The position numbers and the translations under genes are program-made. From contig PMIJ01000092.1 in the NCBI GenBank assembly GCA_003157015.1, positions 6,731-70,730 of the forward strand: a stretch of 64,000 nt of DNA, written 5' to 3'. The notes under the pieces were generated by a model. The model did no database searches, was not told the origin of the DNA, and saw only the letters and a list, made by a program, of their open reading frames with translations. Of this stretch, positions 44,829 through 53,319 are shown piece after piece (position 1 is the stretch's first letter; each line of letters opens with the position of its first letter). Source of the DNA: Bacteroidales bacterium (GTDB taxonomy: Bacteria; Bacteroidota; Bacteroidia; Bacteroidales; VadinHA17).

Positions 44829-46106
44829 CTAGAGTAGTATTCCGGCCAGTGAAGCTGAAATATACGAAGCCATAGTTCCACAGAGCATAGCCTTAAAGCC
44901 GAGTTTTGCAAGGTCTGCTTTTCGATTCGGAACAAGTACACCTATTCCACCAAGCTGAATTGCTATTGAACTGAAATTTGCAAATCCGCAAAGGGCAAAA
45001 CTTGCAATTACCACTGATTTTGCACTTAAAAGTCCCTGATGTATCATCGGAGTCAGGTCGGAATAGGCAACAAATTCGTTAATTACCATTTTTGTACCCA
45101 TCAGGGAACCTACATGTAATGATTCAGAGGGAGGGACTCCCATTACTACGGCAAACAGACTGAAAAAAGCTCCAACAACATCTTTCAGGCGAAGGTTATC
45201 GACATTCAGTCCCAATGCATTGAGTGATAACCCGGTCCATGAAAGAAAATGTCCGAAATAGCCAAGGAGAGCATCAATAAGCGCTATAAGGGCAATAACC
45301 CCGATGAGCATAGCTATGACATTAATTGAGATTTTCATGCCGTCACTTGCCCCGTGGGATATCGCATCCATAATGTTTGAATGTTCTTTTTTCACCTCAA
45401 GTTTAACTACTCCTTGTGTTTCTGACTCTTCCGTCTCTGGAAAGACTATTTTAGCAATGACAAGTGCACCAGGCGCTGCCATCAGGCTGGCGGCCAGGAG
45501 GTATGATGCCGGCACACCCATTGATATATAGACAGCCATTACTCCCCCTGCAATACAAGCCATGCTTCCTGTCATGGAGGCAAGCAGTTCTGACATTGTC
45601 ATTCCTGAAAGATAAGGCCGGATCATAATCTGAGCTTCAACCTGCCCTACAAATGCACTGGCAACATTCGATAATGCTTCGCTCCCGCTCACCCTCATTG
45701 CCCAGTGAACAAAGCGTGCTATAACGGCTATTACTCTCTGCATCAATCCTATATGATACGCTATTGCGACCAGAACACAAACAAATATAATCGTGGGTAG
45801 TAAGATGAAGAGAAAAATACCGCTTTTCACAATACCTTCGGGAAGTATCTGGGTCACTTTTGTAAGATCTCCGAATACAAAAAGCCCACCGGCTTTTGAA
45901 AAATCAAGCAGTTTATTTATGGCCTTCCCCATCCAGAAAAAAATTTCCTGACCTATAGGAACCTTAAGAATAAAGATTGCAAGAACAATCTGCAGAATAA
46001 GACCTGTGATGACGAGACGGTAATTTATTTTTTTCCTGTTATTCGACCATAGGAATGCAAGTCCAAGAATAATAATTATCCCAATAACACCGGTAAATCT
46101 GCCCAT
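44829..46106 (-). CDS. NupC/CNT-family nucleoside transporter
   Basis: It is a polytopic membrane protein of 425 aa with CNT-like strings (NEFVAY, GFANFSSIAIQLGG). Confidence 0.8.
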   Translation of the reverse strand: MGRFTGVIGIIIILGLAFLWSNNRKKINYRLVITGLILQIVLAIFILKVPIGQEIFFWMGKAINKLLDFSKAGGLFVFGDLTKVTQILPEGIVKSGIFLFILLPTIIFVCVLVAIAYHIGLMQRVIAVIARFVHWAMRVSGSEALSNVASAFVGQVEAQIMIRPYLSGMTMSELLASMTGSMACIAGGVMAVYISMGVPASYLLAASLMAAPGALVIAKIVFPETEESETQGVVKLEVKKEHSNIMDAISHGASDGMKISINVIAMLIGVIALIALIDALLGYFGHFLSWTGLSLNALGLNVDNLRLKDVVGAFFSLFAVVMGVPPSESLHVGSLMGTKMVINEFVAYSDLTPMIHQGLLSAKSVVIASFALCGFANFSSIAIQLGGIGVLVPNRKADLAKLGFKAMLCGTMASYISASLAGILL

Positions 46107-46266: not shown

Positions 46267-46656
46267 CTACTTGTTGCCGGCAGTCAATGACTCAGACCAT
46301 TTTTTAATAATGTCAGCCTGATCATTAGTGGGGATAAGATCTGGTCTTTTTTCTCTGGCAGCTTTAGGCGGCATAGCACCTTTATTAATTTCTGAATACA
46401 TTTTAGCTGCTCTTTCCTTCTGCTTTTCAGGTGAATAGTTTGTCCACTCTGTAAAATTCAATTTAGTTTTGGACATTAAGCCACCCTGGCTTGTATGACA
46501 GGGAGTACATGAAACAGAGACTATTTTATTCACATCCTCCGGTATCGATGCATTTGTTTTTGATACGTCCTGGGCTGAAACCGGAATATTAAATAGAAAG
46601 AGACTGATTAATAAAAATCCGGAAAACAGGATAAATGAAACTACAGTTTTCTTCAT
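46267..46656 (-). CDS. Small secreted heme-binding-domain protein (CxxCH)
   Basis: It has a signal peptide and a single CTPCHT motif. The following MPPK...IIKKW pattern resembles Haem_bd-type domains. Confidence 0.6.
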   Translation of the reverse strand: MKKTVVSFILFSGFLLISLFLFNIPVSAQDVSKTNASIPEDVNKIVSVSCTPCHTSQGGLMSKTKLNFTEWTNYSPEKQKERAAKMYSEINKGAMPPKAAREKRPDLIPTNDQADIIKKWSESLTAGNK

Positions 46657-46734: not shown

Positions 46735-47574
46735 CTAGTTAAAAACTGCAATCTGACCATTCTTTGGAATAGCCCTGTAAATAATCTTTGCATCGGTACG
46801 TGGCAATCTGATTTTTATAAATGGGTGATATTCAGGAATTTTAAATACAGCAACTCTTTTTAGTGCACTCCATGTATCTCTAAGCCTATCCTGCAGATCG
46901 AAACTTAGTTGGTTGATCCTGTCACTGAATTTCATGTTCTCTTCCTGGTAGACATAGATTCTTATTCCCCTGTTCATTTCGAGAATATAATTAACCGGTT
47001 CAGTAATAGATGTATCGGGCATAACATCAGGTTTATATTCAGATGTATCTTTAGGTGCCATTTTGATCATTACCGGGTCCTTCTTTATTGTAGCATATGC
47101 ATGTAAAATGGTAAAAGGAGTTGAGAGCATTGACAGTATTGCATTATCGTTGTCAGTCCGCAAAATCTTACTGCTCTTAAAACCTCTTATCTTTGATTTA
47201 TAAACGACTACACCGCTTATTTCAATATTGGTGGTGCTGTCTTCCAGGTTAATAATAAGGTAAATTGAATCTGATTCAGCCATCAGTATCCTTGATTGAA
47301 GAAATGCCTTTTCTTTCAAAAACTTAAGATAAGATGAATCATTCACTACTTGCCTGTCAACACCGTTTTTATCATTGACCTTAGCACCGAATTCCTTTTT
47401 TATCTCTTCCATTTTCCTGACAGGAGAGAGCATTGACATTATGGAATAATAGATAATGAAGACTGATAGAATACTTATCAGCACTCTGAAAGTGATTTTT
47501 CCAAAATGCCGTATTTTACTGTCTTTGGTTTCCATTTTATCTGGCAGATCAGTAAATATATACTTTTGAACCAA
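46735..47574 (-). CDS. Membrane-anchored, Cys-less paralogue of the adjacent L,D-transpeptidase (putative pseudoenzyme)
   Basis: It has an N-terminal TM helix. SIYLIINLED...KIRGFKSS and PFIKIRLPRTDAKIIY align to LDT2 SYIVINTTEN...LIREGFCSS and THGCVRLNDDDLKVIY. The protein contains no cysteine. An alternative start is ATG 47535. Confidence 0.5.
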   Translation of the reverse strand: MVQKYIFTDLPDKMETKDSKIRHFGKITFRVLISILSVFIIYYSIMSMLSPVRKMEEIKKEFGAKVNDKNGVDRQVVNDSSYLKFLKEKAFLQSRILMAESDSIYLIINLEDSTTNIEISGVVVYKSKIRGFKSSKILRTDNDNAILSMLSTPFTILHAYATIKKDPVMIKMAPKDTSEYKPDVMPDTSITEPVNYILEMNRGIRIYVYQEENMKFSDRINQLSFDLQDRLRDTWSALKRVAVFKIPEYHPFIKIRLPRTDAKIIYRAIPKNGQIAVFN

Positions 47575-48385
47575 TATTTAGTGTATTGTAGATCACCTTC
47601 AGATCATCATCGTTCAACCTCACACAACCATGTGTAACCGGCATACCAAGAAAACGCTTATAAATAGTTCCATGTATCATGTATCCGTCTCCCAAAATAA
47701 GAGCATAATCTCCTAAAACACCATATTCAAAACGCGAATCAGCATTTGCAGAGGGTATCGGTGAACCTTCTTCCACGAATGACCAGTCGGGTCGTTTCCA
47801 TACGGGATTGGTTATTTTTCCATGGACCCAGTATTTTCCTTTGGGCGTTTTGAAGATCCACTTTTTATTTCCGGCTGTCTGAAGCATTGTGTAGCTTCCT
47901 GAACTGCAGAAGCCTTCTCTTATCAGCTTTTTGTTAGTATATAGGGCGAACCTGTTTTCAGTGGTGTTTATGACAATATATGATTGTCCCGATGTGTAGG
48001 CATTAAATCTCAACGAAAGACGCTGTATATCTTTAGTCAGAAGGCCCATCTGCTTTTTATAAATAAGATCCCTTTTCAATTCCTGATTAATTGCAGACTC
48101 TGTTTTATGTTGGAGTGAAATTTCCTCAAGAACCGGAACCATATACAGAATAAAAAGAACCAGGGCGAGAGTTACCAGAACTGTGCAAATGAATATAAGC
48201 AATGAACGTAAAATAATGAAGAGAGGCTTCTTTGAAATATCTTTTTTTTCAACACCGCTTTCAGTCTGGACAGGAATTTCATTTTTACTTTTATTGGCTT
48301 CTGTTGCCGGATATCCATTCTCAGACTCAGTACTGTTTTTTACTATCTCCTCGTCTTCCATATCAGATAATTTACTTGTCCACAA
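47549..48385 (-). CDS. L,D-transpeptidase (YkuD domain), membrane anchored
   Basis: The catalytic motif is IHGT...THGCVRL (Cys codon at 47624-47626). It has an N-terminal acidic segment plus a TM helix. Confidence 0.8.
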   Translation of the reverse strand: MWTSKLSDMEDEEIVKNSTESENGYPATEANKSKNEIPVQTESGVEKKDISKKPLFIILRSLLIFICTVLVTLALVLFILYMVPVLEEISLQHKTESAINQELKRDLIYKKQMGLLTKDIQRLSLRFNAYTSGQSYIVINTTENRFALYTNKKLIREGFCSSGSYTMLQTAGNKKWIFKTPKGKYWVHGKITNPVWKRPDWSFVEEGSPIPSANADSRFEYGVLGDYALILGDGYMIHGTIYKRFLGMPVTHGCVRLNDDDLKVIYNTLNIGSKVYIY

Positions 48386-49484
48386 TATCTTTCAATTCGA
48401 CCATTGATCCAATGATTGTAACAGGAGTACCTACCTTTGCAATCTTAAAAACAACATCCATCTCTCTATCAGTAAGAGCGATACATCCTTCAGTCCAGTC
48501 TATGCCTTTACCTCCGTTTCCATGAATTTCAATCAATCCGCCAATTTTAGCCGATACAGGAAGAGATCCATGTTCAATTTCAGATCTGAATTTTGCTCTG
48601 TCTTCTTCATTGGGATAATCGAGTAACAGCGCTTTGTAATATTTGGTTTTACCTCCGTCAAATTTTTGGGATATTTTATACATTCCTTCAGGAGTCGCCT
48701 TATCCCCTCTTTCTCTCTTGTCCCCGACCCAGTTTTTTCCTAATTCCGCTTCAAATTCATATTTTCTGACACCTTCAAGATAAATAAAACATTTTCGTGA
48801 AAATTTATCAATAATTATTGAATAATCGCGATTTTTTCTGGATTCATTTACAGTCTTATCAGCCCATTTTTTCCAGACAGAATATGATTTGAAATAATTT
48901 TTCAGATTTGATGATGCATTTTCGTAGGATTCTGTGAGAAGATACTCTGAATCAGTCAGTTTCCTGTTCGCTTGTAAATACTGTCCCTTATCATAGATTA
49001 TCTCGGCCTCATTTAATAATACCTTTCCTTTTGAAATGCGGTTCCGTATTTCAGAAGTTAACGGATAAGTGGTGAAAAGGTCATCAATCTGAGATACCAG
49101 AACATCAAGTGAGTCAATCTTTTGTTTCAGTATTATTTTAAGGTTCGATGAACTGGCTATTGAATTATCAGCGGCAAGGCTTGCTTTTTTGGCTGACAGA
49201 TCAGCAAACATTACAACCTTATCATAATGCCTGAAATAGATAAATCTATTGTTTTCTTTCTTCCAGTTTACCATTGCTGAATCATAAAAGATCTTTGCCT
49301 CGGTAAATAGCTTTTTTGAATATGTATCTGCTTTGTTAGTTCCTGCCTTAGAAAGAATTTCCCTGGCACGTTCCATTTCACCTGAAGGTGGCTTAGGTGT
49401 AAAACGGACCAATAATAAGATTACTAACGGTATAGAAACTGCAATAGCAGAAAAAATCAGCACATCTCTCCAACTCTTTCTCAT
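48372..49484 (-). CDS. L,D-transpeptidase (YkuD domain) with an N-terminal helical DUF4398-like module
   Basis: It has the catalytic IEIHGNGG...TEGCIAL motif and an N-terminal TM helix. The helical region shares YDKGQYLQANRK with the upstream lipoprotein (YDKGSYMDAQNK). Confidence 0.75.
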   Translation of the reverse strand: MRKSWRDVLIFSAIAVSIPLVILLLVRFTPKPPSGEMERAREILSKAGTNKADTYSKKLFTEAKIFYDSAMVNWKKENNRFIYFRHYDKVVMFADLSAKKASLAADNSIASSSNLKIILKQKIDSLDVLVSQIDDLFTTYPLTSEIRNRISKGKVLLNEAEIIYDKGQYLQANRKLTDSEYLLTESYENASSNLKNYFKSYSVWKKWADKTVNESRKNRDYSIIIDKFSRKCFIYLEGVRKYEFEAELGKNWVGDKRERGDKATPEGMYKISQKFDGGKTKYYKALLLDYPNEEDRAKFRSEIEHGSLPVSAKIGGLIEIHGNGGKGIDWTEGCIALTDREMDVVFKIAKVGTPVTIIGSMVELKDIVDK

Positions 49485-49503
49485 GTAAACCTGTGACGAT
49501 TTT

Positions 49504-49530
49504 AAAAAAAACCCCGGAAATTTCCCGGGG
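49504..49530 (-). terminator. Rho-independent terminator after the Ala/Lys-rich lipoprotein gene
   Basis: On the minus strand it reads CCCCGG-GAAATTT-CCGGGG followed by T8, and it sits 30 nt after the stop codon. Confidence 0.75.
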
Positions 49531-49560
49531 ATTTTATATAAATAAGTTAATACTTATTAA

Positions 49561-50229
49561 TTATTTTTTCTTTGGTGCCGGTGCTGCTGCAGGTTTAGCT
49601 GCTGGCTTAACTGCTGGTTTAGCTGCTGATGCTGCTTTTCCTCCGTGTACTTTCGCAATAGCATCTTTTAATTCAGTATTGATACCTGTTGCACTTGCGT
49701 TGGCTGCTTTAACTTTATTCTGAGCATCCATGTATGAACCTTTGTCGTACAAACCCTGAGCTTCTGCTACAGTTGCATCGATAGTAGTCATTTCGGTTTT
49801 AATCTGCTCAAGAACAGCTGCGCCTTCTTTACCTCTAGGAGCTTTTGTAATAAGAGTTTTGTTTTCTTCAATAACAGCTTTTACAGCTGCCAGGGAAGTT
49901 TCAACATCTTTCTTAACTTCTTCTTTTTTAGCTACAGCATCAGTTGCTGTTTTATTGGCTGCGGCTAAAGTAGCATCCAATTTGAGTTCAATAGGACCAA
50001 ATTTCTTGAATAATTTTGATTTCTGAACTTCAATTGCAGCATTAATAGATTTCATAGAATCCTGTACAGCTGAAAGTTCAGCAGGTACATAAACAGCTGC
50101 TTCAGCAGTCTGTGCAGCTGCGATTGCTGCGTTAGTAGCATCAACTTTTGCCTGTGGAACTTTTCCACAACTAGAAAGGAAAGCAACCATTGCGATAGCG
50201 GCTAATCCCATTAAAACTTTGTTCTTCAT
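49561..50229 (-). CDS. Ala/Lys-rich helical lipoprotein (DUF4398-like) with a C-terminal AKP repeat ending in KKK
   Basis: It has the lipobox AFLSSC and predicted helical repeats (AEAAVYVPAELSAVQDSM, EAQGLYDKGSYMDAQNK). The tail is AAKPAVKPAAKPAAAPAPKKK. The ATG at 50229 is preferred over 50265. Confidence 0.6.
   Translation of the reverse strand: MKNKVLMGLAAIAMVAFLSSCGKVPQAKVDATNAAIAAAQTAEAAVYVPAELSAVQDSMKSINAAIEVQKSKLFKKFGPIELKLDATLAAANKTATDAVAKKEEVKKDVETSLAAVKAVIEENKTLITKAPRGKEGAAVLEQIKTEMTTIDATVAEAQGLYDKGSYMDAQNKVKAANASATGINTELKDAIAKVHGGKAASAAKPAVKPAAKPAAAPAPKKK
49589..49624 (-). repeat. Three tandem 12-nt units (plus strand GCWGGYTTARCT) encoding the AKP repeat tail of the lipoprotein
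   Basis: GCAGGTTTAGCT GCTGGCTTAACT GCTGGTTTAGCT, in frame within CDS 49561-50229. Confidence 0.7.
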
Positions 50230-50311
50230 TTTTCTAACCTTTTTAATACTTTGTTTATTTAACAACTTCCGATCTATTTAGTTTAATCGTTTTCGTTTAA
50301 AAATTACGGTG

Positions 50312-50319
50312 CAAATATA
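50312..50319 (-). promoter_or_regulatory. Bacteroidetes-type -7 box upstream of the Ala/Lys-rich lipoprotein gene
   Basis: The minus strand reads TATATTTG, 82 nt upstream of ATG 50229. Confidence 0.3.
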
Positions 50320-50508
50320 TTAAAATTATAGAACATTACAATATAAAAATGAAATAATCTTGGTTTCCGGTAAAAAATATGTCGTAAAACACATTATTTT
50401 GTAACTGTTTGGCTATTTCTAATTACTTATGTTACTTTTCATTCCAAAGTAAAACCAAGAGGTTCCAATCCGCTTTGTATTTCACCGCATGACATGTACA
50501 GGTTCTAT

Positions 50509-53319
50509 TTACTCTTCACTTTCAGATTCTTTAATAAGAAACTCCGTGAGATTCTTATCATGACCAAGGCTTAGTTTCCGCCTTAACCGGTACCTGCTTA
50601 TTTCGACTGCCCTGCCTGAGATATTTAAAAGTTTGGCAATTTCTTTCGTAGTAAAGTTCATTCTCAGGTATGAGCTCAGTCTCAGATCATGAGGTGTCAG
50701 ATTAGGATACTTTTCTTTTAACCTTTTAAAGAATCCCTGCTGTGATAATTTCAGAACATTCATTGCATTCTTCCACTCTTCAGTCTGTGAATCGCGACCT
50801 TGATTTATTATCCTTTCCATCTCCCTTATGAATTTCACGGGAAATTTTGCAGATTGCTCCTGAAGAGTATTAATCTGTTCGTGTAATTCCGTTAAAATTT
50901 CATTCTTTTGTATAAGGTATCTCATTGTAAGCATCAACTCATAACTCTTGTAATCCAGTTCACTCTCCAGTCTGTTTCTATTTACTTCGAATTCAATAAG
51001 CTGCTTTTGCTTTCTGAGTTCAACCCTGAATATTCTTATACTTAGAACAACAACGCTCATCAGGATCAGGCTGTATAAAACATATGAGTACCATTCCAAA
51101 TACCATGGTCTTTCAATAGTAAATACCAGCGTATCGAAATTACTTGTTATATCTGACCTGATAATAAGGTTGTAAGTTCCATAACCAAGGTTTAGATATG
51201 AAAAATAATCCTGTGTTGTAATGTGCCAGTCATCATCAATCTCTAAAAGTTTATATTGAAACTCCTTCTGCTCCATATAAAACTGGCCCGGATTGGCGAA
51301 ATGGACTGTAAGATTATTTGTATTGTATGGAACCTTTATTTCACCATTGTGTTCAACCGAAAATTCAATCTTTTTTTTGTTGCCCTGAAAAACCAGGTTG
51401 GTGATTTTTAAATCCGACGCAGATGAAGATAATCCCAAATGTGCCAGATTATAAACTATAAAAGCCTGTCGGGTTGGAATAAGTACACTCTTTTCACTCA
51501 GCTGAATGATCTGCAATTCTCTTTCGCGGACATCAGAAGATTTCTGAACAAGCTCCAGTTTCTTTACTGCCTCGAAATCTTTCGATATTTCAAATAAAGC
51601 AATTTTGTTTCCATTGACAAACCAGTAGTTATTTTTCAGATAGGGTATTATCTGAGATGCTCTCCGGAAATCTCCCAGAGTGAGGTTAAGTTTTACTAAC
51701 GGGATGATTTCTCCTTTTTCATAATTAAATGCATAAGTAGAGTCAGATGTGGAAAAAATGATCTGATTATTAATTTTGTGGATAGCTATTTTTCTTGGGA
51801 CTCCCGAAATGCTATTAAAAAACTTTAAATTGACAATTGAATCAAGCGCTTCATTCAACTCAATTTTATAAATACCTTTTTGAGGATGTGAAGCCCAAAT
51901 ATATCCAAGATAATCAACTTCGATGTTTCTGGTAGGCTCAATAAATCCTTTAATTCTGTTCCTGAATGTCCATCTGCCTTTATTATCTTTTTTGAAGAAA
52001 ATGATACCCGTGTAAGTTCCCTCGATCAGAAGATCATTATATCTTTTTATGGTCCAACCTCCTGTAACATCTGATATCTTTCTTACATCTGATCCATCAA
52101 GGAGAAAAGTACCATCGTTATGTCCACACAATATCTGGTCATCGTACTGATCAATTGTCCAGACCTGCCCCTGGGTTCCGGGTATAAGTTTAATATCCGA
52201 AAAGCTATAATCTTCATTCATATTTTTAATTGTAGCTACAAACAAACCATGGTTTGTGCCTAGGTACAACTTCCCTTTATCTTGAATAGTGGTATAAATT
52301 GTACCCAATGTGCCGGAAGAATTAGTAAAGGTAGCCCCGGGAGAAAAAACATTAAAATAATTTGCTCCCTCATCCAAACCGATCCATAAACCGTTATCAC
52401 GATCCTTGTAGAGAGATAATACTGTATTGTTATTCAGGCCATTGGTATAATCAAACTTCTTTACTATTTCCCCTTCTCTGTTACTAAGTACAACTCCATT
52501 CTGTATGGTGCCAAAAACAAATAGCGAATCATTCAGGGACAATCCGGCGTTACAGGTTTGTAACTTCAGGTAAGAAGATATTTCAGAATTCATAAAAATA
52601 AATTTTCCGCGGTGAAAACTAAAAATCCCGTCATTTGCTGTACAAATCCAGTACTCATCATTACCTTTTTCAATAATAGAATGCACTTTTTTCCAGCTGA
52701 AGAGTTCACTCCCCTCAATAAATTTGAATTTGTCTCCATTGAACCAGTAAAGACCACTCCCAAGTCCCTGGGTTATAAATCCTTTGCTGGTTCGAAACAT
52801 AAATAATAAAATAGATGGCCCCTTTATGGGTTTTACTTCAGCTCCGTTATAAGAATAAATTGTTGTGAATGATTGAAAGTAAATGATGCCTTTATCTTCG
52901 TAGATTTTCCATATCTCATCATTTTTCTCGATACTCATTTTAGCAGAAAGAGAATGATAAATAAGGTTGCCATTGTGGCTATCCTTCCAATAACCAAATT
53001 CCTCAAAAGAACCGGTAAATATGGTCCCATCCCGGGAAACATGCACAGATCTAATTGTTTGTCCATATGGAAGGCTGAAACGCCTGCAGCTGATTCCGTT
53101 GAATTCTATCAATCCTTCAGAATTTGCAAAGTAAATGAATCCGTTTACCGAATTCTGGCTGATTCCCCAGTTTTGATTTTCAACAGGAACATGGCTGGAA
53201 ATAAACCTTTTAATATCTTGATCGTTGGATAAAGATGAAGCATTGAGGAAGGAAATCCCGGAGAGAGAAAGTAAAACAGTGATCCATAATCCGGAAATAT
53301 TTTTCAGAGTTACTGACAT
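50509..53319 (-). CDS. Transmembrane one-component regulator: periplasmic two-component-regulator-propeller repeats plus Y_Y_Y domain, TM helix, coiled coil, LuxR/GerE HTH
   Basis: Propeller-like repeats are present (GFIYFANSEGL, DEYWICTANDGIF, NGLWIGLDEGANYF, GKLYLGTNHGLFV). The Y_Y_Y-like string is FQYKLLEIDDDW...GYGTYNLIIRS, the TM helix is YSYVLYSLILMSVVVLSI and the C-terminal HTH is LTPHDLRLSSYLRMNFTTKEIAKLLNISGRAVEISRYRLRRKL. No kinase or receiver motifs are present. Confidence 0.7.
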   Translation of the reverse strand: MSVTLKNISGLWITVLLSLSGISFLNASSLSNDQDIKRFISSHVPVENQNWGISQNSVNGFIYFANSEGLIEFNGISCRRFSLPYGQTIRSVHVSRDGTIFTGSFEEFGYWKDSHNGNLIYHSLSAKMSIEKNDEIWKIYEDKGIIYFQSFTTIYSYNGAEVKPIKGPSILLFMFRTSKGFITQGLGSGLYWFNGDKFKFIEGSELFSWKKVHSIIEKGNDEYWICTANDGIFSFHRGKFIFMNSEISSYLKLQTCNAGLSLNDSLFVFGTIQNGVVLSNREGEIVKKFDYTNGLNNNTVLSLYKDRDNGLWIGLDEGANYFNVFSPGATFTNSSGTLGTIYTTIQDKGKLYLGTNHGLFVATIKNMNEDYSFSDIKLIPGTQGQVWTIDQYDDQILCGHNDGTFLLDGSDVRKISDVTGGWTIKRYNDLLIEGTYTGIIFFKKDNKGRWTFRNRIKGFIEPTRNIEVDYLGYIWASHPQKGIYKIELNEALDSIVNLKFFNSISGVPRKIAIHKINNQIIFSTSDSTYAFNYEKGEIIPLVKLNLTLGDFRRASQIIPYLKNNYWFVNGNKIALFEISKDFEAVKKLELVQKSSDVRERELQIIQLSEKSVLIPTRQAFIVYNLAHLGLSSSASDLKITNLVFQGNKKKIEFSVEHNGEIKVPYNTNNLTVHFANPGQFYMEQKEFQYKLLEIDDDWHITTQDYFSYLNLGYGTYNLIIRSDITSNFDTLVFTIERPWYLEWYSYVLYSLILMSVVVLSIRIFRVELRKQKQLIEFEVNRNRLESELDYKSYELMLTMRYLIQKNEILTELHEQINTLQEQSAKFPVKFIREMERIINQGRDSQTEEWKNAMNVLKLSQQGFFKRLKEKYPNLTPHDLRLSSYLRMNFTTKEIAKLLNISGRAVEISRYRLRRKLSLGHDKNLTEFLIKESESEE

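Follow-up and report, generated by a model that had tools for sequence, protein, structure and literature searches.

The covalent anchoring of the outer membrane through a lipoprotein is described in every textbook, yet Braun's lipoprotein (Lpp) is confined to a subclade of the Gammaproteobacteria. Bacteroidota are not known to possess Braun's lipoprotein, and phyla other than those with Lpp are believed to depend on Pal, OmpA, or OmpM. In the present study, we analyzed a stretch of 64,000 nucleotides (nt) from a Bacteroidales bacterium (GenBank assembly GCA_003157015.1, contig PMIJ01000092.1, positions 6,731 to 70,730), hereafter called the window, in which four genes on the minus strand encode a lipoprotein, two YkuD-domain proteins named LDT1 and LDT2 after the L,D-transpeptidases (LDTs), and a fourth protein that contains no cysteine. 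An earlier note on this DNA had proposed that the lipoprotein is a Braun-like tether ending in lysines and encoded with three LDT paralogues. The four genes were found to form a module that is conserved across lineages, and the interpretation that we favor, to which we give slightly less than an even chance, is that LDT2 covalently attaches the lipoprotein to peptidoglycan, while LDT1 releases it or counterbalances the attachment.

In E. coli, Lpp is attached by LdtA-C, while LdtE forms 3-3 cross-links (PMC8263019). LDTs also attach proteins that are unrelated to Lpp, such as LimB27 in Coxiella burnetii (through the internal Lys21 of LimB) and Lpg1810 in Legionella (Lys-Thr) (PMC12729407), and OutB in Dickeya is attached by an LDT through an Lpp-like box (PMC12274547). 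In addition, DpaA-like proteins have been reported from two groups without Lpp, Bacteroidetes and Acidobacteria, where they may have other substrates (PMC8263019). Bacteroidota are not mentioned in a review of LDTs that covers protein attachments (PMC12729407), and we found no report in the literature of a peptidoglycan-bound lipoprotein in Bacteroidota or of the gene module described here.

The module resembles the Lpp system in that its helical lipoprotein carries no surface signal, has a basic C-terminus containing lysine, and is apparently highly expressed, and in that it is accompanied by one transpeptidase-type and one DpaA-type YkuD protein, as LdtA/B/C attach and DpaA (LdtF) detaches Lpp in E. 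coli. The rod that we infer for the lipoprotein is approximately 80 Å long, compared with an envelope spacing of about 85 Å in E. coli (PMC12729407). In contrast to Lpp, a trimeric coiled coil of 58 amino acids (aa), the present protein has 222 aa and is modelled as a five-helix double bundle; its terminal lysine is not invariant; its enzymes are predicted to be membrane-anchored and are encoded in the same operon together with the additional Cys-less fourth protein; and it occurs in Bacteroidota, Eisenbacteria, Krumholzibacteriia, and Thermoanaerobaculia lineages. The Pfam model of Lpp (PF04728) gave no match to the lipoprotein at E values up to 1, and BLASTP against E. coli Lpp returned an E value of 0.24. 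Due to this lack of homology and to the absence of an invariant terminal lysine, the lipoprotein was placed outside the Lpp family. In E. coli K-12 (NC_000913.3, 1757421-1758725), lpp adjoins ldtE in a convergent orientation, and the neighborhood of an LDT gene and the gene of a tether lipoprotein is, thus, not without precedent.

The non-terminal linking lysines of LimB and Lpg1810 are a precedent that fits the internal residue K134 of the present lipoprotein, or one of its subterminal lysines, as the point of linkage. LimB27, Lpg1810, and OutB are unrelated to it in sequence and all come from Gammaproteobacteria, and their attachment was shown by mass spectrometry, whereas it is hypothesized here. 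Moreover, none of these proteins was described in those papers with a conserved operon comprising a transpeptidase, a DpaA-like enzyme, and a pseudo-enzyme.

Conservation and expression layout of the module

The listing of open reading frames (ORFs) in the window contains four tightly packed, co-directional ORFs on the minus strand between positions 46735 and 50229 (Table 1), as the earlier note had described, except that the fourth gene, for which a start at 47574 had been given, more likely begins with the ATG at 47535, which results in a protein of 266 aa, as in most of the listed homologues. The start of LDT2 is ambiguous because the TTG at 48385 results in a 14-nt overlap with LDT1 and the ATG at 48361 in a 10-nt gap.

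A scan of species-representative genomes, with one genome per species, confirmed relatives of the lipoprotein at 532 places, and the best 80 of these loci, which were analyzed, all came from uncultured Bacteroidales or Bacteroidia found in soil, fen, and sediment. LDT1 was the next gene after the lipoprotein gene at all 78 Bacteroidales species loci with enough sequence, and it was followed by LDT2 at 72 of 76; the genes upstream of these loci varied, and those downstream partly agreed. The same four genes were present in unrelated surroundings in a lineage with 45-50% identity. A more distant set was obtained by a metagenome scan with an alignment of distant family members; further members of this part of the family have source names from Candidatus Eisenbacteria, Krumholzibacteriia, and Thermoanaerobaculia. 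In the metagenome set, LDT1 followed the lipoprotein gene at 29 of 35 loci, and LDT1 and then LDT2 at 20 of 23. The linkage between the lipoprotein and LDT genes that had been proposed for this DNA consequently holds in other genomes. The fourth gene is located directly after LDT2 in the close Bacteroidales loci and in those with 45-50% identity, and, wherever a distant contig continues, a fourth gene of 225-295 aa is present that has an FYLVLD motif and weakly matches the hidden Markov model (HMM) of the fourth gene. Since this order is kept across lineages with differing flanks, we rejected a chance clustering of the four genes and consider functional coupling to be very likely. Judging from the sequences, it may be stated with high confidence that this conserved four-gene module couples the lipoprotein to two active YkuD enzymes.

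At three loci of the lineage with 45-50% identity (L084:4628-5648, L085:3909-4938, and L087:4635-5656), genes for an extracytoplasmic function (ECF)-type sigma factor of 191 aa and for a 132-aa protein lie upstream on the opposite strand, and this neighbor may reflect control of the module by envelope stress. Three contigs of a single metagenome-assembled genome, MFD02416.bin.1.219 (L057, L058, and L062), each carry a copy of the module with a lipoprotein that is 74% identical to that of the window; these copies represent either a true triplication or strain variants that were binned together.

Regarding expression, the lipoprotein gene is separated from LDT1 by the hairpin CCCCGGGAAATTTCCGGGG and a run of eight T residues, with a folding energy of -14.4 kcal/mol, which is located 30 nt past the stop codon of the lipoprotein gene and about 20 nt before the start codon of LDT1. 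This hairpin is kept in 77 of 82 close, 5 of 5 intermediate, and 8 of 37 distant loci. Upstream of the lipoprotein gene, the box TATATTTG has counterparts of the type TAnnTT[TC]G, presumably the Bacteroidetes -7 consensus, at 70-110 nt from the start codon in 70 of 85 orthologous loci. The intrinsic terminator and the dedicated promoter box noted previously are, thus, both borne out by comparisons among species. The upstream and leader region at about 50240-50345 of the window is strongly conserved across species (...TATGTTC[CT]ATAATTTTAATATAT[TC][TC]GCACCGTAATTTTTAAAC...), and this stretch includes the approximately 80 nt from the promoter box to the start codon; a search of Rfam returned no family for this region and one sub-threshold match on the terminator. 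Among the 41 large ORFs of the window, the effective number of codons is lowest for the lipoprotein gene (43.4) and second lowest for LDT1. Taken together, these features indirectly suggest that the lipoprotein is highly expressed and that read-through into the enzyme genes is attenuated, a layout that would be less expected of a catalytic regulator than of a substrate or structural protein.

The lipoprotein, the YkuD enzymes, and the fourth protein

The lipoprotein begins with MKNKVLMGLAAIAMVAFLSSC, which is directly followed by GKVPQAKVD, and ends with AAKPAVKPAAKPAAAPAPKKK. In Bacteroidetes, the signal that directs lipoproteins to the surface has been described to start at or immediately behind the lipidated Cys and to read C-X-K-(D/E)2-X or S-D-D-D-D (PMC5080379). 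This signal is absent from the mature N-terminus C-G-K-V-P-Q-A-K-V-D, which contains no (D/E)2 after the Cys, and the family consensus at this site is C-x-K-x-P-Q-x-E; the earlier description of an LSSC lipobox without a surface-export signal was, therefore, correct. Since the signal is absent, the lipoprotein is predicted to face the periplasm, and its sequence is compatible with either membrane.

No Pfam or NCBIfam family reached its threshold with the lipoprotein. Matches to DUF4245, the Cbp1 adhesin, and the PG1828 lipoprotein were rejected because they covered only the signal peptide region and were far below the cut-offs. A profile scan of 1.84 billion representative proteins revealed 758 relatives, 325 of which had E values of 1e-10 or lower, and nearly all were lipoproteins of approximately 200 aa that aligned over their full length. 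Relatives that bear a name are labelled 'hypothetical protein' or have plainly wrong automatic labels; 'cob(I)alamin adenosyltransferase', 'ATP/maltotriose-dependent transcriptional regulator MalT', and 'small lipoprotein YifL' on homologues (P0001, P0021, P0034, P0502, and others) were discarded because no domain match supports them. The only informative source names among the family clusters looked up are Breznakibacter, Eisenbacteria, Krumholzibacteriia, and Thermoanaerobaculia; the member labelled Breznakibacter sp. (order Marinilabiliales) is 45% identical. Residues that are conserved in the family are Cys21, P25 (within C-x-K-x-P-Q), Y47, D57, and the loop A130-P131-x-G133-K134.

The N-terminal portion of approximately 80 residues (26-106) was weakly matched by DUF4398 (PF14346) in 28 of 97 family members at an E value of 0.01 or lower (best 1e-8). 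Three members scored singly remained below the gathering score of 27.9, the lipoprotein of the window itself gave no match, and we found no functional study of DUF4398 in the literature. Four of the six distant loci at which LDT1 does not follow belong to a sibling family that has only the N-terminal helical domain in common and carries TonB_C at its C-terminus. The fusion of the DUF4398-like N-terminal domain to TonB_C makes the rod look like a modular periplasmic spacer. In these sibling loci (L154:3451-4332, L157:128-913, L161:375-1238, and L145:2-733), TonB_C was matched with E values of about 1e-21, and no LDT genes follow where the contigs extend.

The helical body that had been predicted for the lipoprotein was borne out by a confident all-helical AlphaFold2 model, which was based on 143 homologues and had a mean predicted local distance difference test (pLDDT) score of 84.5 and a core above 95. 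Its helices span residues 26-41, 49-70, 78-129, 136-162, and 166-195, and residues 198-222 are disordered (pLDDT below 50). From the up-down order of the helices in this model, we infer two three-helix bundles sharing one continuous helix of 52 residues, for which a rise of 1.5 Å per residue predicts a length of approximately 78 Å. The lipid anchor may be located at one pole, with the loop of residues 130-136 and the C-terminal tail at the opposite pole. The best fold match in the PDB was the N-terminal helical domain of Borrelia BB0323 (TM-score of 0.53 on the target length, E value of 0.47). BB0323 is an envelope lipoprotein with a non-covalent LysM peptidoglycan-binding module; in contrast, the present lipoprotein has no LysM, OmpA_C, or other peptidoglycan-binding domain and possesses only a short basic tail.

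Two sets of lysines merit consideration. K134 is the only lysine that is 100% conserved in the alignment of 82 close and 35 distant LDT-linked orthologues (117 unique sequences), and A130, P131, and G133 are conserved to the same extent. The C-terminal lysines, on which the Braun-like interpretation was originally founded, are kept in the long-tailed clade of the window, but a terminal lysine is not conserved family-wide. While 112 of the 120 closest homologues end in K, the last residue in 121 unique LDT-linked orthologues is K in 61, R in 52, and another residue in 8, and in 103 complete representatives at 50% identity with a lipobox these numbers are 47, 30, and 26, respectively. A lysine is found among the last five residues in 116 of the 121 LDT-linked orthologues, and the mean numbers of basic and acidic residues in the last eight positions are about 3 and 0.3, respectively. 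In view of the mixture of K and R at the end and the lysine within the last five residues, the conserved property is a short basic tail that usually contains lysine, rather than a terminal lysine. In the 78 Bacteroidales species, the tail after K193 has a median length of 5 aa and a range of 3 to 43 aa; it is a long (AAKP)n tail in 21 species, 20 of which end in K. Closely related species (L005, L011, L014, L016, and L019) have between 0 and about 40 residues of (AAKP)n and keep the terminal KK or KKK, which looks like the repeat expansion and contraction of a spacer.

LDT1 and LDT2 both match the Pfam YkuD model (PF03734, cut-off 23.4 bits), with an E value of 2e-14 (54.8 bits) for LDT1 and 2e-19 (71.2 bits) for LDT2, and the catalytic His together with the [ST]xGC motif of the Cys is kept in 114 of 120 and 105 of 106 orthologues, respectively. 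The two differ in the residue located two positions past the Cys, which is Arg in 105 of 105 orthologues of LDT2 (THGCVRL, [ST]HGC) and Ala in 113 of 115 orthologues of LDT1 (TEGCIAL, T-[ED]-G-C). Winkle et al. reported that the loss of this Arg separates DpaA-like proteins and L,D-carboxypeptidases from transpeptidases (PMC8263019). The nearest solved relative of LDT2 is the L,D-transpeptidase 4lzh, and LDT2 reached no NCBIfam equivalog cut-off, such that its subtype, protein-attaching or 3-3 cross-linking, is left unassigned. The nearest solved relatives of LDT1 are Pgp2, an L,D-carboxypeptidase (PMC8263019), and then chain 4xzz. The best NCBIfam match of LDT1 was LdtF/DpaA/YafK (NF040599) at 33.6 bits against a cut-off of 365, and LDT1 is not an equivalog of that family. 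Chain 4xzz is titled 'conserved hypothetical secreted protein', and we take it to be Csd6. By its catalytic features, LDT2 is a transpeptidase-type YkuD protein, while LDT1 is, by its signature, of the hydrolytic DpaA/Csd6/Pgp2 type and may be either an amidase or a carboxypeptidase. The designation of LDT1 as an L,D-transpeptidase should, therefore, be modified, because Ala two residues after the Cys and Pgp2 as the nearest structure point to a hydrolase. On this classification, the module pairs one 'forming' with one 'hydrolysing' YkuD enzyme.

LDT1 shares Ala two positions past the Cys with DpaA-like proteins, Csd6, and Pgp2 (MEROPS C82.A01), and differs from them in its N-terminal membrane anchor and in a helical domain of 170 aa that is homologous to the neighboring lipoprotein. 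This homology, which had already been suspected, was confirmed by BLASTP of the lipoprotein against the N-terminal part of LDT1 (E value of 2e-5), by hhalign (probability of 92.5%, E value of 5e-7, 155 columns), and by reciprocal HMM matches of up to 1e-14. The domain begins directly past the membrane anchor of LDT1, and what it lacks is exactly the G-K-E-G-A-A-V segment of the invariant loop. LDT1, LDT2, and the fourth protein each have a hydrophobic N-terminal segment after basic residues, and this feature predicts an inner-membrane anchor with the remainder of the protein in the periplasm. One type of rod may act as a spacer from both membranes, such that the peptidoglycan layer would be reached by the YkuD domain of LDT1 from the inner membrane and by the lipoprotein tip from the outer membrane.

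Among the three LDT paralogues claimed previously, two are YkuD enzymes with certainty and the third is tentative because the similarity of the fourth protein to LDT2 was only detected between profiles. As had been described, the fourth protein contains no cysteine; however, it matched neither YkuD nor any other family in the Pfam or NCBIfam models. hhalign against LDT2 gave an E value of 0.023, which improved to 3e-4 with more diverse profiles (probability of 40%, 163 colinear columns), and the two proteins are colinear to the C-terminus, with HPFIKIRLPRTDAKIIY aligned to THGCVRLNDDDLKVIY. The AlphaFold2 model of the fourth protein (72 homologues) had a pLDDT of 45 and was unusable, such that the relationship to YkuD comes from hhalign. 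A Cys-less YkuD-like pseudo-enzyme is, nevertheless, plausible.

Possible covalent attachment and its alternatives

According to the interpretation that we favor, the lipoprotein would reside in the inner leaflet of the outer membrane, with its A-P-x-G-K loop and basic tail at the pole next to peptidoglycan. LDT2 would join a lysine of the lipoprotein to meso-diaminopimelate in the tetrapeptide stem, and K134 or a lysine in the basic tail is more likely to be the acceptor than the last residue as such. LDT1 may release this link as DpaA does or may trim donor stems, and the Cys-less fourth protein may be an accessory subunit or pseudo-enzyme. The module would then be a functional counterpart of Lpp, LdtA-C, and DpaA, although its lipoprotein is unrelated to Lpp. 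We are more hesitant about the complete version of this scheme, in which a DUF4398-like rod unrelated to Lpp is attached through K134 or its tail by a dedicated LDT and is released by a DpaA-like enzyme carried on a paralogous rod in the inner membrane, with a Cys-less YkuD-like regulator completing a one-operon system for attachment and detachment; we regard this scheme as a tentative proposal. The earlier concept of a Braun-like tether, thus, survives in a modified form: the gene linkage, the shared domain, the helical body, and the expression layout speak for it, the terminal lysine does not, and the covalent bond is hypothetical.

A number of points weigh against covalent attachment. Unlike Lpp, only about half of the orthologues terminate in K, with R taking this place in 43%, and more than 20% of the periplasmic proteins and lipoproteins of E. 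coli end in K (PMC12274547), which makes a C-terminal lysine weak evidence alone. The geometry of the two poles was deduced from the order of the helices, not from coordinates, the fold search of the PDB with the lipoprotein model yielded no significant match, and the periplasmic localization was predicted solely from the missing export signal. Furthermore, lpp adjoins the gene of an enzyme to which 3-3 cross-linking, and not the attachment of Lpp, is ascribed, and adjacency alone, therefore, does not name the attaching enzyme. The terminator is mostly missing in distant lineages, and all carriers identified here are uncultured genomes.

Considering the strict synteny of the module, which suits a protein complex as well as an enzyme-substrate pair, the lipoprotein may instead be no substrate, but a non-covalent regulator or scaffold that spans the periplasm and binds, positions, or activates LDT1, LDT2, and the fourth protein, the main alternative, which we consider possible but rather unlikely. 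It would then resemble LpoA and LpoB, the outer-membrane lipoproteins that reach through the periplasm to activate penicillin-binding proteins anchored in the inner membrane, and 3-3 cross-linking or stem trimming would be confined to sites with an appropriate distance to the outer membrane. LpoA and LpoB themselves show no homology to the present lipoprotein, act on penicillin-binding proteins, not on YkuD enzymes, and are not encoded in operons with their partners. The A-P-x-G-K loop would be a protein-protein contact, and the lipoprotein could find a partner in the helical domain of LDT1, since the homology between them suggests pairing or competition; the non-conserved terminal lysine also agrees with a regulator, and a Cys-less YkuD-like fourth protein suggests regulatory pseudo-enzyme subunits. 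However, pure scaffolding leaves the glycine-flanked invariant lysine and the lysine-rich tail unexplained, the pair of a transpeptidase-type and a DpaA-type enzyme mirrors the chemistry of attachment and detachment, and the gene's own promoter, its terminator, and the strongest codon bias in the window point to a lipoprotein that is far more abundant than the enzymes, an excess that is more commonly a trait of substrates or structural proteins.

In a further alternative, the lipoprotein would be a non-covalent rod that sets the spacing of the envelope and the K/R tail of which sticks to anionic peptidoglycan or phospholipid, while the LDTs would be co-regulated remodelling enzymes (3-3 cross-linking, stem trimming) that do not act on it directly. 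Several observations agree with such a spacer: what is conserved at the C-terminus is positive charge (K or R), the N-terminal half resembles DUF4398 and is joined to TonB_C in the sibling family, the helical domain of BB0323 is the best fold match, and one lineage has a gene for an ECF sigma factor upstream. We still find it improbable because a tail of 3-5 basic residues binds peptidoglycan weakly compared with OmpA_C, LysM, or Pal domains, co-regulation alone rarely keeps gene order and content across phyla while the flanks change, and neither the K134 loop nor the copy of the rod in LDT1 is explained. The architecture also recalls the mycobacterial heparin-binding haemagglutinin (HBHA), in which a helical body is followed by a repeat tail rich in K, A, and P, and the repetitive tail of the window, with its variable length, would suit an HBHA-type surface adhesin that binds polyanions such as glycans of a host or matrix. 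This reading was rejected as very improbable: the lipoprotein has no export signal, the AKP tail is missing from most of the family (median tail of 3-5 residues), and the strict linkage to periplasmic cell-wall enzymes would be unexplained.

Returning to covalent attachment, the module offers a concrete candidate substrate for the DpaA-like enzymes of Bacteroidetes and Acidobacteria, and the residues that would be central to the reaction are K134 and the lysines of the tail in the lipoprotein, Cys254 in LDT2, and Cys334 in LDT1. If attachment is true, the long-sought substrate of DpaA-like enzymes in bacteria lacking Lpp would be identified; if the lipoprotein is a regulator, L,D-transpeptidases would for the first time be seen to be controlled by a lipoprotein. 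In either case, an unannotated family of 758 representative clusters becomes interpretable.

Feature coordinates and neighboring genes

Table 1. Features of the four-gene module in window coordinates (all on the minus strand).
Feature	Position	Strand	Remarks
Promoter box TATATTTG	50312..50319	-	Bacteroidetes-type -7; approximately 83 nt upstream of the lipoprotein start codon
Lipoprotein gene, 222 aa	49561..50229	-	ORF; lipobox LSSC, modelled helical rod at residues 26-195, disordered basic tail
Cys21 codon of the lipoprotein	50167-50169	-	Lipobox LSSC
Invariant loop A130-P131-R-G133-K134-E-G	49822..49842	-	Joins the long helix to helix 4 in the model; K134 at 49828-49830
Disordered C-terminal tail GGKAASAAKPAVKPAAKPAAAPAPKKK	49564..49644	-	Variable (AAKP)n spacer, then terminal K cluster
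Intrinsic terminator-like hairpin and T8	49503..49530	-	Separates the lipoprotein gene from LDT1; 8-bp stem with 6 G-C pairs
LDT1, 370 aa	48372..49484	-	Predicted N-terminal membrane anchor, helical domain, YkuD domain
LDT1 helical domain, about residues 30-200	48885-49397	-	Homologous to the lipoprotein
LDT1 YkuD domain, residues 221-357	48414-48824	-	Motif TEGCIAL; Cys334 at 48483-48485
LDT2, 278 aa (270 aa from the ATG at 48361)	47549..48385	-	Predicted acidic cytoplasmic N-terminus, membrane anchor, YkuD domain
LDT2 YkuD domain, residues 135-277	47555-47983	-	Motif THGCVRL; Cys254 at 47624-47626
Fourth gene, 266 aa	46735..47535	-	Predicted N-terminal membrane anchor and periplasmic domain rich in beta-strands; Cys-less
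HPFIKIRL of the fourth protein	46804-46827	-	Aligned to THGCVRL of LDT2

Models of anti-phage defence systems gave no match at the locus. The gene upstream of the module in the window (50509-53319) encodes a regulator that matches Reg_prop and GerE (LuxR-type) and, weakly, Y_Y_Y. Downstream of the module, positions 46267-46656 on the minus strand encode a secreted protein of small size, which contains CTPCH as a CxxCH motif and matches Pfam Haem_bd with an E value of 1e-10. Many Bacteroidales loci, although not all, have this Haem_bd gene after the module, and the gene for a NupC-type nucleoside transporter (44829-46106) is a more constant downstream neighbor.

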